Assembly (NCBI GenBank): GCA_018817595.1
Contig: JAHITU010000007.1
Coordinates: 8,775-72,774, forward strand
DNA: 64,000 bases
Direction of reading: 5' to 3'
Source of the DNA: Patescibacteria group bacterium
GTDB taxonomy: Bacteria; Patescibacteriota; Minisyncoccia; Phycocordibacterales; UBA12079
The stretch's first letter is position 1, and every line of letters starts with the position of its first letter. Below are positions 11,730 to 63,846 of the stretch, one piece after another. The notes under the pieces are model-generated. The model was given only the letters and a program-made list of their open reading frames with translations. It had not been told where the DNA came from and searched no databases. The translations under genes were made by a program, and so were the position numbers.

Positions 11730-11961
11730 AAATGATTAGGGGTCGTTCCTCTTAATAAAGATAATTGTAATCTTTAGGCAAAAATTAAAAAGCTAAGATA
11801 ACCGAGGTGCGACCCCTAATTTAAATTTTAAATTATGAAGTCCGATTTCTGTCTGCCCCTGCGCGCCGGCAGGCGTGGGCATAGGCAGGGGTTGGGGTGT
11901 TCAAATGGCTAAAACCTTAATAATAAATAGCCCAACCGGTTGGGCTATTTAATTTACTTCA

Positions 11962-18102: not shown

Positions 18103-18345
18103 GAATTATGATTTAAGAACGAATTTTACTCTGCAAAATAAATGAAAAGCCTGCGGACAGCCTGCCCACTCCTGCCGGCGCGCAGGGGCGGACAGGCGAC
18201 TTGAGGTGTTGGATTTCAACAATTTGGGCTTGATTTTTGGAGTAATGTCAGATATTCTAATTTAAAGAATAGTTCTGTTTTTCAATGTAATTTTTTAATT
18301 ATGTTGAAAATGTAATTTAACCTAGTAAATTAGAGGAGAGTATTT

Positions 18346-24663: not shown

Positions 24664-24902
24664 TCTTTTGACTTTAAGGACTTTCGACCTTATACTTGTG
24701 CATATGTTCGATCAAAAAAATCAAAAAAGAATAAAAATCGTTTGGGCAATTTTAGGAATACTAGTAGCAGTCAGTATGGTTCTCGTTTATATACCATTCT
24801 AAATTTTAGATTTTAAATTTAAAAATTTACTTTGTAAATTTTTCCTAACACCTAAACCTGCCTGCTGGCAGGCAGGTAGCTAACACCTAACAACCTAATA
24901 AA

Positions 24903-25840: not shown

Positions 25841-25912
25841 GCCCTTGTAGTTCAATGGATAGAACAAGACACTCCTAACGTCTAGATCTAGGTTCGATTC
25901 CTGGCAAGGGCA
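25841..25912 (+). tRNA. tRNA-Arg (anticodon CCT)
   Basis: Cloverleaf folded by hand: acceptor GCCCTTG/CAAGGGC, D-stem GTTC/GAAC, anticodon loop CTCCTAA, T-loop TTCGATT, no encoded CCA. Confidence 0.85.
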
Positions 25913-26116
25913 CAAAAGGAGAAATCAGTAGCGATCTAGCTACTGATTTTTCTTTTCTTTTGTAGGTCTTGCCAGGAATCGAAAGACGGAGGCGCGAAGC
26001 CAATTTGTGAGCTTGCGAACAAATTGAAGCCGAGTTCGGGTCGAAGGTTCTTATTAAAATTTGAGCTTACGAAAAATTTTAATTAGAAACCTGTGACCGA
26101 TTCCTGGCAAGGGCAC
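25913..26116 (+). ncRNA. conserved structured element trailing tRNA-Arg; ends in a direct copy of the tRNA 3' end and holds an inverted copy internally
   Basis: Terminator hairpin, inverted CTTGCCAGGAATCG, conserved CGAAAGACGGAGGCGCGAAGCC...GCCGAGTTCGGGTCGAAG...TTTGAGC...GAAAAA...AATTAG core, then GACCGATTCCTGGCAAGGGCAC. The same architecture follows the Phe, Glu and Gln tRNAs. Confidence 0.6.
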
Positions 26117-26520: not shown

Positions 26521-26640
26521 CGTCTCTGCGACTCAGCACTTTGAATTTTATTACTTACCTTCTTATTATAAATAAATGTTTATTTACATAAACTTTGTTT
26601 ACATTGTTTTAACAAAGTGATGGGGAAGCAGTCCAGAGAA
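26521..26640. repeat. MITE-like repeat CGTCTCTGCGAC-TCAGCACTTTG ... CAAAGTGATGGGG-AAGCAGTCCAGAG
   Basis: Same termini as 13339 and 41033. Abuts the tRNA-Phe trailing element. Confidence 0.55.
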
Positions 26641-26645
26641 TTTAA

Positions 26646-26936
26646 AAAACAGCTAAAAAGCTGTTTTTTATTTTGTGCTGAGGGGCGGGCTCGGTCACGA
26701 ATCACTAAGTCTTTTATTTCGCCCTGCCTACCCCTGCGCGCCGGCAGGCGTGGACAGGCGTGGGCAGGCAGGTTCGCTCATAAAAAACAAAGTGTTCTCA
26801 ACCCCGTCTCGGCTTTTTCTTTTGCTTCGCTCCAGAAAATAGACCTGTGACTTTCGAGCCCGCACGAAAGCAAAGAAGTTTGCTTTCTCCTTCATCCCAA
26901 AATAAAAAAACAGCTAAAAAGCTGTTTTTTATTTTG
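26646..26936 (-). ncRNA. tRNA-Phe trailing structured element (minus strand) carrying an extra GC-rich repeat insert
   Basis: On the minus strand it reads tRNA, terminator, conserved core (GCCGAGACGGGGTTGAGAACACTTTG...ACTTAGTGATTCGTGACCGAGCCCGCCCCTCAGCACA), then a second copy of the terminator hairpin. It contains the GCCCCTGCGCGCCGGCAGG-type GC-rich block. Confidence 0.6.
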
Positions 26937-27009
26937 TGCTGAGGGGCGGGCTCGAACCGCCGACCCTTCGCTCTTCAGGCGAATGCTCTACCAACTGAGC
27001 TACCTCAGC
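26937..27009 (-). tRNA. tRNA-Phe (anticodon GAA)
   Basis: The reverse complement folds as GCTGAGG TA GCTC AGTTGGTA GAGC A TTCGC CTGAAGA GCGAA ... TTCGAGC ... CCTCAGC A. Confidence 0.9.
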
Positions 27010-27232
27010 ATATTTTATTTTTCTACCTACTGAGCCTGTCTGCCGGTGAGACAGGCAACCTCAGCATATTGATATTTATATATCATACCTTATTTATAGA
27101 TTTTTTCAATAATATTTACAAAAATTACATTTGCAAAAAATTTGAAAAAGTTATATTCTAAAAACTAGAAAATAACTTGTAAATTTACATAGACCAAATA
27201 ATCAGATTCTTAGAATTTGAGAGGAGGTTGTT

Positions 27233-27784: not shown

Positions 27785-28263
27785 ATTAACTCTTCAACAA
27801 CCTTTTTAACCAAAGCGCCGTCGACGTCTTCGCCGGTGCTTTTTATTTGTCCTAGTATTGCCCCGATTAAAATTCCCGCTCCTGCCTTGCCGGCAGGCAG
27901 GTTAGTTGCATCTTCTATACCTAATTCTGCTTTTTTAGCAATAGCTATTTCTCTTATTTTTTCTTCACTCATCATTTCAGGTAGGTATTTTTCTAGAATT
28001 TCTAGTTCTGCTTTTTCACTCGCCACTAAATCTTCTCGACCACCTTTTCCATATTGTTCAATAGAATCTTTTCTTTGCTTAACAGCCTTTTTAATTACAT
28101 TTAAAGCGTCTTTATCTTCAATAGGTTCTTGAGGTTTCTTACCTAAAGATATTAATTCATTAGTAAAACCAGCGATAAGACTTTTTAAAACCATTAATCT
28201 AACCTCTTCACGATTTTTCATGGCTTCTTTTAACTCCTCTCTTATTTTTTCTTGTATTTTCAT
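27781..28263 (-). CDS. yqeY: GatB/YqeY domain protein
   Basis: 160 aa with the YqeY-like helical fold (MKNREEVRLMVLKSL...). Confidence 0.75.
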   Translation of the reverse strand: MKIQEKIREELKEAMKNREEVRLMVLKSLIAGFTNELISLGKKPQEPIEDKDALNVIKKAVKQRKDSIEQYGKGGREDLVASEKAELEILEKYLPEMMSEEKIREIAIAKKAELGIEDATNLPAGKAGAGILIGAILGQIKSTGEDVDGALVKKVVEELI

Positions 28264-47263: not shown

Positions 47264-47335
47264 GGCCTTATCGTCTAATGGTTAGGACATCGCCTTCTCA
47301 AGGCGGCAATCCGGGTTCGATTCCCGGTAAGGTCA
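47264..47335 (+). tRNA. tRNA-Glu (anticodon CTC)
   Basis: Acceptor GGCCTTA/TAAGGTC, D-stem GTCT/GGAC, anticodon loop TTCTCAA, T-loop TTCGATT. Confidence 0.85.
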
Positions 47336-47518
47336 CAAATCAAAAATAACAGTCTTTCTGACTGTTATTTTTTGATTCTAGTGAATCTCCTGTGGAGATA
47401 ATCGAAGGTCGGAAGAAAATCCGAGATTTTCTGAGACGGGGTCGAGAACACTTTGTAAAATTTGAGCAAAGCGAAAAATTTTACTTAGTGATTCGTGATC
47501 GATTCCCGGTAAGGTCAC
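47336..47518 (+). ncRNA. conserved structured element trailing tRNA-Glu; ends in a direct copy of the tRNA 3' end
   Basis: Terminator, CGAAGGTCGGAAGAAAATCC...GAGACGGGGTCGAGAACACTTTG...TTTGAGCAAAGCGAAAAA...ACTTAGTGATTCGTGATCGATTCCCGGTAAGGTCAC. Confidence 0.6.
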
Positions 47519-51112: not shown

Positions 51113-51748
51113 ATGTTAGTTTTTATTGATGAATCCGGAGATCCAGGATTAAAAATGAATAGCGGTTCAAGTCGGTTTTTTACTATTGCTTTGGTAGTAT
51201 TTGAAGATTATGATGAGGCTACTAATTGTGATAGAAGAATTGAATTATTAAAGAAAGAATTAAGTTGGAGTGATAATTCAGAATTTCATTTTAAGAAAAA
51301 CTCTTTAAGAGTTAGGGATTCGTTTTTTAAAGCTGTTATGCCTTATAATTTTTTCTATTATGGTATTGTCATAAACAAAGATCCTAACAAACTTTATGGA
51401 GAAGGTTTCAAGAATAAATCTTCTTTTTATAAATATGCATGTAGTCTTGTTTTTGAGAATGCAAAAGATAAATTAAGTAAATCAATTGTTGTTATAGATA
51501 AAAATGGAAATAATGAATTTCGTAATCAATTAGCTAAATATTTAAGAAGAAAGATGAACATTGATAAAAAGAAGATTAGAAAAGTTAAGATGCAGAAATC
51601 TGAATCCAACAATTTGTTACAGTTGGTTGATTATGTTGCTGGGGCAATAAATAGATCTATTGTTAACTCAAGAAAAGATTCTCAGGTTTTTAGAAAAATG
51701 CTTAGTCGTAAAGAAATGTATGTTCAAGTGTGGCCAAAAAAAGAATAA
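51113..51748 (+). CDS. DUF3800 family protein
   Basis: N-terminal MLVFIDESGD and C-terminal LQLVDYVAGAI motifs, both characteristic of DUF3800. Confidence 0.65.
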   Translation: MLVFIDESGDPGLKMNSGSSRFFTIALVVFEDYDEATNCDRRIELLKKELSWSDNSEFHFKKNSLRVRDSFFKAVMPYNFFYYGIVINKDPNKLYGEGFKNKSSFYKYACSLVFENAKDKLSKSIVVIDKNGNNEFRNQLAKYLRRKMNIDKKKIRKVKMQKSESNNLLQLVDYVAGAINRSIVNSRKDSQVFRKMLSRKEMYVQVWPKKE

Positions 51749-51954
51749 AAGAAAACCACCGAACCTATCCTTGCGGAACGCAGTGATAAACACTACAGTT
51801 TGGTTCGGTGGCACTTCCTTAATTGAAACTATAACATTTTATATCAAAAAATCAAGTAAACTGTGGATAACTAAAACATTGTAAATAAAATTTAAATTAG
51901 CTCTAAAAGAGCAGAACGGCTCAACGACTTGAGCTATTTAAAATAAATGAAAAT

Positions 51955-63136: not shown

Positions 63137-63207
63137 TGCCGGATCGTCTAATGGTAGGACACTGGTTTTTGGTACCAGCGATCGGGGTTCGAGTCCCTGT
63201 CCGGCAA
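63137..63207 (+). tRNA. tRNA-Gln (anticodon TTG)
   Basis: Acceptor TGCCGGA/TCCGGCA, D-stem GTCT/GGAC, anticodon stem CTGGT/ACCAG with loop TTTTGGT, T-loop TTCGAGT. Confidence 0.8.
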
Positions 63208-63612
63208 CTATAAAAATAAAGACACTAGAATGAATATTCTAGTGTCTTTATTTTTATTTGTCCGGCAGGGGCTCGAAAGACGAAGGCTGCGAAGCCAGTT
63301 TTTCGAAGAAAAACTGTAGCCGAGTCGGGGTCGCGAGTACTTATTATTTTTGAGTGCGAAGCACGAAAAAAATAATTAGTAACTCGTGACCGAGTCCCTG
63401 TCCGGCAACATATAAAATATAGACCCTAAAGCACTAGCTTTAGGGTCTATATTTTATTTGTCGGACAGGGACTTGAAACGAGCGAAATATATTTTTCTGA
63501 AGCGTTAGCGGAAGAAAAATTTGAGTGAGCAGGGTCGCGAGTTCTTAATAGAATTGAGTCCGTAGGACGAAAATTATATTTAGAACTGGAGACCGAGTCC
63601 CTGTAAAACAAC
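63208..63612 (+). ncRNA. two tandem copies of the tRNA-trailing structured element, each ending in a copy of the tRNA-Gln 3' end
   Basis: Copy 1 runs to about 63409 (…AATTAGTAACTCGTGACCGAGTCCCTGTCCGGCAAC). Copy 2 runs to about 63612 (…GAGACCGAGTCCCTGTAAAACAAC). Each has a terminator hairpin and an inverted TGTCCGGCAGGGGCTCG / TGTCGGACAGGGACTTG. Confidence 0.6.
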
Positions 63613-63846
63613 ATGATTAAATAACCCTAAAGCACTAGCTTTAGGGTCTATATTTAATATCCATCTACTATCACAGGTTCGAACCTGTGTGATGTTTAAT
63701 ATGGTTGGGTAGGGAATAGGTTTTGAAAACTAGTTAGTTAAAGAGAAATTATTGCATTAAATTTTAAAATGCGTTGCTATTTTTTTAGTAAGAGTGTATT
63801 TTATTAATAGATAGTTCGTTCAAATAAATCACTTAAGAGGTGTCCT

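Follow-up and report, generated by a model that had tools for sequence, protein, structure and literature searches.

Structured non-coding units trailing tRNA and tmRNA genes in Patescibacteria, and a GC-rich palindrome inserted into the tRNA-Phe copy

Introduction

tRNA and tmRNA genes are classical targets of integration, and a block of identity running from the T-loop to the 3' end of the gene is typical of such sites. The elements described here share with tRNA- and tmRNA-integrating elements and prophages the targets, the repeat from T-loop to 3' end and the intact upstream gene. They differ in having neither recombinase nor cargo, in the small size of the insert (~135-200 nt) and in the variable length of the repeat (7-80 nt); furthermore, their conserved part is a covarying single-strand fold, and they carry an arm antisense to the target. 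Class C group II introns, which are terminator-targeting retroelements, are also located right behind an intrinsic-terminator hairpin and carry target-complementary sequence. Compared with these introns, the present elements are far smaller and lack domain V/VI, a reading frame and any Rfam match, and their arm of 12-19 nt pairs with the tRNA beyond the hairpin, unlike in class C group II introns.

MITEs and REP/BIME repeats are likewise small, non-coding, multi-copy and hairpin-rich, with ends that are mutually inverted repeats. In contrast to MITEs, the present elements carry end repeats that are specific for the target (the local tRNA 3' end) and differ from locus to locus, have no fixed short target duplication, are 60-72% identical and not near-identical within one genome, and are located solely behind tRNA-like genes. 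The retron msr-msd RNA is of similar size, and its paired ends close a junction from which short hairpins and a single long, variable-tipped hairpin project; the present elements differ from retrons in their many copies per genome and in an end pairing that is derived from the neighbouring tRNA.

The locus studied here is located in a 64,000-nt stretch (hereafter the window) of a Patescibacteria group bacterium genome (contig JAHITU010000007.1). The window represents an ordinary cellular genome of 31% GC, encoding SMC, PBP2, FtsW, MurG, GltX, MurJ, DnaE and DprA. Pfam search of 40 window ORFs detected no transposase, integrase or reverse transcriptase; no reverse transcriptase lies next to the element, the neighbours of which are housekeeping or Pfam-less genes. 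Since a defining feature of each known system is lacking, and since the Rfam and literature searches described below were negative, we treat the family as an undescribed kind of element.

Results

Elements behind tRNA and tmRNA genes

All four tRNA genes of the window (Arg, Phe, Glu and Gln) are trailed by the element, that of Gln by two, giving five copies in total (Table 1), and no copy was found away from tRNAs in the 64 kb. The second Gln element shares GAAACGA..., GAGTGAGCRGGTC and TTTAGAACTGGAGAC with locus L051 (4480-4634); because these distinctive features recur there, we regard it as a separate subfamily and not as a product of random decay. After the last terminator of the Gln locus, an isolated perfect T-arm-like hairpin, CACAGGTTCGAACCTGTG, was noted at 63672-63689, possibly left over from a tRNA.

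An exact-pattern scan of one representative genome per species yielded at least 117 loci (numbered with the prefix L). Among the matches listed, all belong to Patescibacteria, mainly Paceibacteria/Parcubacteria, and the loci listed include Kaiser-, Yonath-, Taylor- and Lloydbacteria. A same-strand tRNA, of about 20 amino-acid specificities overall, is located within 400 nt upstream in 91 of the 123 matches listed, and the tail after GWGAY is the 3' end of the own upstream tRNA in most of them. Profile search of the loci listed detected 165 copies, of which 102 immediately follow a tRNA, 18 stand in tandem, 12 lie at a locus edge and 33 elsewhere; several of these last follow tmRNA genes, with arms matched to the tmRNA. 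On the tRNA strand, the unit is composed of the tRNA or tmRNA gene, a terminator-type hairpin, the antisense arm, a three-way-junction core and a direct copy of the 3' end that begins exactly at T-loop C56 of the own gene. The unit is ~160-270 nt long from tRNA C56 to copy C56, with an insert of ~135-200 nt. It is this direct 3'-end copy that characterises the family as a whole.

Many of the tRNAs that had been counted as unoccupied actually bear divergent relatives with the same layout, having split arms or different cores. Different cores, set between the usual hairpin and antisense arm on one side and the tRNA 3' copy on the other, were noted for L033 Thr, L057 Ile, L038, L083 Arg and L081 Gly, and one such core terminates in GTACTG...CTGTAAG. 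Near the low-coordinate end of L043, the heptamer with which P3 ends at its 3' side, ACTCGTG, forms a short tandem run on the minus strand, a few hundred nt downstream of a trailing element.

Rfam searches, both at gathering thresholds and permissively at E <= 10, gave no match to the elements. In the window, Rfam matched only the tRNAs and one DUF3800-IX RNA (RF02968, 47 bits; 51751-51812, minus strand), which directly follows a DUF3800-domain gene (ORF 51113-51748), as is expected of this RNA. The same search is able to detect introns: at L005, a group I intron (386-698, 60 bits) occupies the expected tRNA site upstream of the trailing element, indicating that an intron-containing tRNA can also carry the element. 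LOOT RNA (RF03000) was observed in related Patescibacteria loci (L102 1534-1651, L007 3852-3985 and L080 850-971). A published description of a tRNA-trailing element family was not found in the literature searched, the coverage of which is incomplete. Accordingly, the trailing elements are a family of previously uncatalogued non-coding units.

Neither an autonomous relative of the element nor an associated protein gene was found in these searches, and none of the copies searched contains a large gene-sized insertion. Apparent split copies were considered as gene-carrying elements and rejected, the associated tRNA simply having a variant T-loop. The 12 kb around the Phe locus showed no similarity to phage DNA. 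The layout as such is the product expected from a small circle recombining within nt 56-73, and simple partial tRNA duplications are also present in related genomes (L055, L117). Together with the tRNA/tmRNA targets and the T-loop-to-3'-end identity block of classical sites, these features would fit scars of integrase-mediated integration, that is, leftover attL/attR-type duplications, or attP-only remnants of phages or integrative elements directed to tRNA/tmRNA 3' ends. Against this origin, no recombinase gene was detected within the window, two specific element patterns gave no match in 2.9 million viral contigs, the antisense arm is given no role, and an insert of ~135-200 nt with an RNA-type fold, compensatory changes and an invariant G-U is unlike duplex protein-binding sites. 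We consider integration scars a quite unlikely explanation and a minor rival.

Table 1. Coordinates of the tRNA-Phe locus, its sister elements and the GC-rich repeats within the window
Feature	Position	Strand	Basis or remark
tRNA-Phe (GAA)	26936..27009	-	ARAGORN; Rfam tRNA 72 bits
Proximal 55-nt direct repeat: tRNA-Phe nt 56-73 and terminator hairpin T1	26900..26954	-	repeat search
Terminator hairpin T1, A/T runs on flanks	26905-26930	-	terminator-like by prediction
5' arm, distal part: degenerate complement of tRNA-Phe acceptor 3' strand	26889..26899	-	sequence reading
Small conserved hairpin AGAAAGCAAACTTCTTTGCTTTC inside arm	26866..26888	-	sequence
5' arm, proximal part GTGCGGGCTCG (5' strand of P1)	26855..26865	-	
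Junction AAAG, then P2	26806..26854	-	RNAalifold, pair counts, cmsearch alignment
Junction GGGG, then long hairpin P3 (GUUGAGAACACUUUG ... CUUAGUGAUUCGUGAC), lengthened by GC block	26694..26805	-	
GC-rich nested-palindrome insert, P3 apical loop	26722..26772	-	cmsearch: 55 inserted nt, 26718-26772
Distal 55-nt direct repeat	26639..26693	-	repeat search; terminator prediction
77-codon ORF, antisense to Phe element	26617..26850	+	judged non-gene
Arg (CCT) sister element	25963..26116	+	114 bits; tRNA 25841-25913, T1 hairpin 25915-25956
Glu (CTC) sister element	47386..47518	+	101 bits; tRNA 47264-47336
Gln (TTG) sister element	63257..63409	+	118 bits; tRNA 63137-63208
Second Gln element, tandem, divergent	63457..63612	+	58 bits; subfamily also in L051
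Intergenic GC-rich nested palindrome	11846..11890	+	16-mer search, alignment
Intergenic GC-rich nested palindrome, opposite orientation	18150..18195	-	16-mer search, alignment

Anatomy of the tRNA-Phe locus

The tRNA-Phe gene has no encoded CCA; its T-loop C56 is at 26954 and its discriminator A73 at 26937. A sequence-only reading of this DNA had placed a conserved core behind the gene. This was borne out by covariance model R1, built from related copies of the element, which matched 26675-26873 (minus strand) over the full model length with 99.5 bits (E 2e-26). In the Phe copy, the arm is split by a hairpin that separates the complements of tRNA nt 66 and nt 65. The same hairpin, as GCAAGCAAACTnCTTTGCTTGC, is present in L047, L083 and L024, which together with L093 are the split-arm subfamily members beside the Phe copy. 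The proximal arm complements tRNA-Phe nt 56-64 and also the distal copy. P2 consists of a GNC/GN'C helix, a GA-type internal loop and a variable hairpin, followed by the conserved GCCGAGAC.

The two direct repeats at the ends of the Phe element are 96% identical. The distal one consists of a copy of tRNA-Phe nt 56-73 (26676-26693), which forms the 3' strand of P1, and a second terminator hairpin (26645-26670). The duplication of the terminator at both ends, as claimed beforehand, is real, but its extent had been drawn too short: since the 55-nt repeat begins at tRNA-Phe C56, the second terminator is the tail of a tRNA-internal repeat. Terminator-like sites were predicted at 26930-26905 (minus strand), 26643-26670 and 25915-25956, and the duplicated hairpin has the GC-containing stem and T run of an intrinsic terminator, as judged by consensus match only. 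Across 84 elements, the length of the repeat from C56 is bimodal, being 7-9 nt or 15-21 nt and rarely up to 80 nt; the repeat extends beyond 35 nt in three, the Phe copy among them. The Phe element is a normal member of the family, to which a GC palindrome in the P3 tip, an arm hairpin and a long terminator-spanning repeat have been added.

Just upstream of tRNA-Phe, a partial 5' copy of the gene was observed at 27025-27070 (minus strand), comprising nt 1 to ~22 and the 5 nt preceding them. The D-arm position of this partial copy holds an inserted GC-rich hairpin, CTGTCTCACCGGCAGACAGG, and a promoter-like site lies upstream of the copy (27109-27082). The relative L119 also has, ~180 nt upstream of its tRNA, a partial duplicate of the tRNA-Phe 5' part, and the promoter is duplicated with it.

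GC-rich palindromic insert

The presence of a ~55-nt GC-rich insert, another point of the sequence-only reading, was confirmed by cmsearch alignment to the family model, by which the insert was assigned to the P3 tip: 55 nt (~26718-26772) replace five model positions of the apical loop, the GC block proper covering about 51 nt (~26722-26772). The surrounding GAGC...GCGAAA motif is unbroken and the overall fold is kept; the fold predicted for the Phe element is that of the family, the GC block extending P3 coaxially (z = -5.3).

The block had also been assigned to a repeat family with copies near 11861-11900 and 18141-18190, and the assignment holds. The exact 16-mer CCTGCGCGCCGGCAGG is found at 11858 (plus), 18171 (minus) and 26733 (plus), and together with its relatives at up to three mismatches it gave 16 matches against 0.02 expected by chance. 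The three long copies can be aligned with a mean column identity of 76% and an invariant stretch of ~18 nt. As a short GC-rich palindrome in several extragenic copies, the block fits a repeat of the REP/GC-cluster type; no partner transposase was found within the window. Yeast mitochondrial GC clusters and the palindromic elements of Rickettsia are, like the GC block, short GC-rich palindromes scattered in an AT-rich genome, and all three are found in loops of structured RNA genes without destroying the gene. The sequence of the GC block is unrelated to either, and its mobility is only putative. The hairpin tip of P3 thus tolerates a second class of insert, the GC-rich palindromes.

In this 31% GC genome, the perfect 20-nt palindrome CCTGCCTGCCGGCAGGCAGG or its near variants were noted in intergenic regions at 24857, 25332 and 40987 and within a YqeY-like ORF at 27886. 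In line with a repeat of the REP/GC-cluster type, the perfect 20-mer is also present in other Patescibacteria genomes, L108 (1650 and 4889) and L088 (3582), and near variants, namely CCTGCCTACCGGCAGG, in L086. One L108 copy lies within the D-arm of a 5' pseudo-tRNA, and in L088, L086 and L014 the palindrome or a near variant lies within the copied tRNA 3' end that belongs to a trailing element.

The 77-codon open reading frame

The ORF antisense to the structured Phe element exists, and it had been called spurious. In agreement with this, it has no match by Pfam search, the public annotation of the ENA contig identical to this one does not call it as a gene, and the paralogous elements are without a counterpart. 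As to the other two GC blocks, one is outside any ORF of at least 30 aa and the other is only within a 38-aa ORF. No coding evidence for the GC block as a genuine, conserved small gene was obtained from the Pfam, annotation and ORF checks, and the interpretation as a GC-rich insert therefore stands. Trailing elements generate spurious ORFs and partial tRNA copies, both able to mislead annotation.

Fold and covariation

Alignment of 46 copies gave a three-way junction, composed of P1 (arm and copy), AAAG, P2, GGGG and P3. One position pair of P2 switches between C-G (17 sequences), A-U (15), G-C (11) and U-A (2). P3 contains many compensatory pairs, one never-varying G-U pair, a conserved U-U mismatch in CUUAG/CUUAG and a tandem G-A motif beneath the variable tip. 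Paired cells amounted to 93.3%, against 73.4% in shuffled and 30-39% in slid controls, and double-change cells numbered 329 against 104 in shuffled alignments, with double changes at 24 of the 34 pairs. The scan pattern fixes GGGTYG, CTT, TTAG and GWGAYCGA in P3, and the invariance of these bases is therefore partly ascertainment; the invariant junction bases GAAAG and GAG were free of this constraint. The fold together with the invariant G-U indicates that it is the tRNA-sense strand, single-stranded as RNA or as DNA, that folds. No promoter belonging to the element was found; the element sits behind a predicted terminator and usually has another terminator after it.

With its aptamer-like three-way junction, covarying helices and invariant junction bases, the element resembles a riboswitch, in resemblance only, and differs in being located 3' of tRNA and tmRNA genes and not in the 5' leader of a regulated gene. 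None of the covariance models of known ribozyme families (hammerhead, twister, pistol, hatchet, HDV-like and others) matched, and the catalytic core by which Rfam recognises group I and group II introns is lacking at both thresholds. Readings of the motifs as hammerhead, k-turn, hairpin ribozyme or T-arm mimic were rejected by eye for misfit of topology or covariation, and on sequence reading the hammerhead CUGANGA...GAAA topology is absent.

A new self-processing RNA, either a ribozyme or an intron-like T-loop insert, was also considered, in which the stretch from C56 to C56 would act as an intervening sequence or cleavage would take place between GUGAC and C56. Group I introns in tRNA-like T-loops are known, the compact junction has invariant nucleotides beside the P3/P1 boundary, and in a predicted fold the tRNA 5' acceptor strand pairs with the distal copy, the insertion being placed between nt 55 and 56. 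Still, the upstream tRNA is already whole without splicing, in about one-third of copies the distal copy is too short for completing a tRNA, hammerhead core motifs are missing, and no Rfam ribozyme or intron matched even at E <= 10. We regard self-processing as a very unlikely and minor rival.

Antisense arm and tRNA copy

The antisense arm was absent from the sequence-only reading. It is antisense to nt 54-73 of its own gene, including T54 and T55. In 69 elements, its complementarity to the real tRNA was 80-100% at nt 56-62, 90% at nt 63 and 78% at nt 64, falling off toward nt 73. Over 18 nt, copy and tRNA are identical in 32 of these elements, and in about one-third the copy is shortened to 7-11 nt.

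In being complementary to ~18 nt of a specific tRNA 3' end, the element is like the primer-binding site of retroviruses and LTR elements, and its copy begins in the T-loop as tRF-3 fragments do. Differing from a primer-binding site, the complement excludes CCA and extends into the trailer hairpin, and no reverse transcriptase is known here. Because the complement runs into the trailer hairpin, the arm matches the gene or the precursor, not mature tRNA.

Two origins of the arm were rejected. A decayed copy of the 5' strands of the tRNA itself does not agree with the tRNA-Gln arm, which follows the complement of the 3' strand (CAGGG) and not the 5' T-stem strand (CGGGG); this is the single informative case. 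Quasi-palindrome correction as the source of the arm-tRNA match predicts the opposite of what was observed, complementarity being weakest beside the hairpin.

These properties bear on the main rival reading, in which the element is a host cis-acting RNA module on tRNA and tmRNA units that gates tRNA maturation. Upon read-through, the arm would pair with the T-arm and acceptor 3' strand of the tRNA, giving a misfolded tRNA or a mark for decay; by pairing instead with the downstream copy, it would form P1, close the three-way junction and leave the tRNA free. Which of the two pairings prevails would be determined by a factor or ligand bound to the conserved junction. In a variant of this reading, the module yields a stable trailer RNA. 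The fixed strand and spacing, the conserved junction nucleotides and the covarying helices agree with such a module. The arm fits the real tRNA better than the copy: among the sites at which tRNA and copy differ, 105 pair with the tRNA alone and 39 with the copy alone. Arm-tRNA complementarity also lasts, and even rises, when the copy is cut to 7-9 nt: the match was 0.80 in truncated-copy elements against 0.70 in others at nt 63-66, and 0.57 against 0.40 at nt 67-72. For the orthologous pair L027/L045, with flanks ~80% identical, a core roughly 90% identical as estimated from the alignment, and a diverged hairpin, the arm has changed together with the tRNA T-stem. Arm-to-tRNA pairing was also used in the predicted minimum-energy precursor folds of three of the four window loci. 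On the other hand, past nt 62 the arm and the copy pair no better than would follow from each decaying independently, and the element is placed after a terminator-like hairpin, both of which argue against the module.

Occupancy, arrays and turnover

In a relative with an identical tRNA-Phe, no element is present, and the neighbours are shared on one side: a 183-aa protein (58% identical), then YqeY, MarR and a P-type ATPase. A metagenome scan for the predicted empty tRNA-Phe allele gave no match. Syntenic tRNA clusters vary in which tRNAs bear elements. In arrays starting from a tRNA, the proximal copy scored higher than the distal copy in nine cases, lower in one and about equal in two. Six 5'-truncated fragments, retaining approximately the last 15 nt of P3 and the copy, were found across five genomes, and no 3'-truncated fragment was found; this asymmetry is drawn from six cases counted by junction spacing.

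Core identity was 0.72 within a genome and 0.63 between genomes. Copies of the same genome share only ~60-72% of the core, and all still keep the fold. In the window, Arg-Gln core identity was 0.71, and no other window copy was among the six nearest neighbours of any window copy. The nearest core relative in another genome shares the tRNA type in 15 of 86 cases against 6.5 expected. Since the nearest cores share the tRNA type in so few cases while the arms always match the local tRNA, the cores have switched tRNA partners over time. Patchy occupancy, polarity of arrays, truncations and location behind tRNA-like genes are thus shown for this family.

For the host module, the patchy occupancy, including the identical tRNA-Phe without an element, is unfavourable, and tandem arrays, truncated fragments and several unrelated cores in the same layout are unusual for regulatory modules. 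Turnover is not wholly against it: only the tRNA-proximal copy of an array remains intact, low identity within a genome goes with a kept fold and conserved orthologues, and no mobilising enzyme was found in the window. The old but folded copies of the same genome and the conserved orthologues look like the outcome of purifying selection over long periods, which would be expected if the element served the host. On balance, the host module is a doubtful explanation, though the foremost among the rivals.

Discussion

The reading that we prefer, to which we give a probability of roughly 45%, is that of a protein-less, non-autonomous insertion element that needs an RNA or single-stranded fold and settles behind tRNA-like genes. 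It is supported by the empty tRNA-Phe site, the patchy clusters, the array polarity and the 5' truncations, and also by the variable, bimodal repeat length, the cores that do not cluster by tRNA type and the other cores sharing the layout. It is weakened by the lack of an enzyme in the window and of an autonomous relative.

For such an insertion element, new copies would enter beside the tRNA, and older copies would be pushed outward and decay. The direct copy from C56 would represent a target duplication, and the antisense arm, either carried or acquired, would match the element to its target. Both variable parts are bounded by the T-loop (TTCGA), which is universally conserved, and because it forms both of these boundaries, we propose that retargeting may occur by joining within the T-loop, the sole sequence common to all targets. 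The asymmetry of truncation hints at synthesis starting from the 3' end. Since the element is promoterless and located behind a predicted terminator, an RNA intermediate would depend on read-through.

More tentatively, and at lower probability than the insertion element, the family might be viewed as an element or module free of protein genes and programmed by base pairing, with the arm as a guide that is re-templated from whichever tRNA-like gene adjoins. One form of this would be a homing element, RNA-templated and 3'-anchored, with the T-loop as the join point. The other would be a 3'-trailer RNA switch deciding whether the read-through precursor folds into tRNA. If true, either the homing element or the trailer switch would be a mechanism without a described bacterial counterpart.

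The ultra-small CPR/Patescibacteria account for much of bacterial diversity, and to our knowledge their RNA biology is almost unexplored. The family described here is abundant (at least 117 loci), strongly structured and attached to essential translation genes, the tRNAs and tmRNA. As a host module, it would represent the first 3'-trailer RNA device for tRNA maturation; if it is mobile, it would show how a non-coding element that carries no enzyme can target tRNA-like genes by a target-matched arm.
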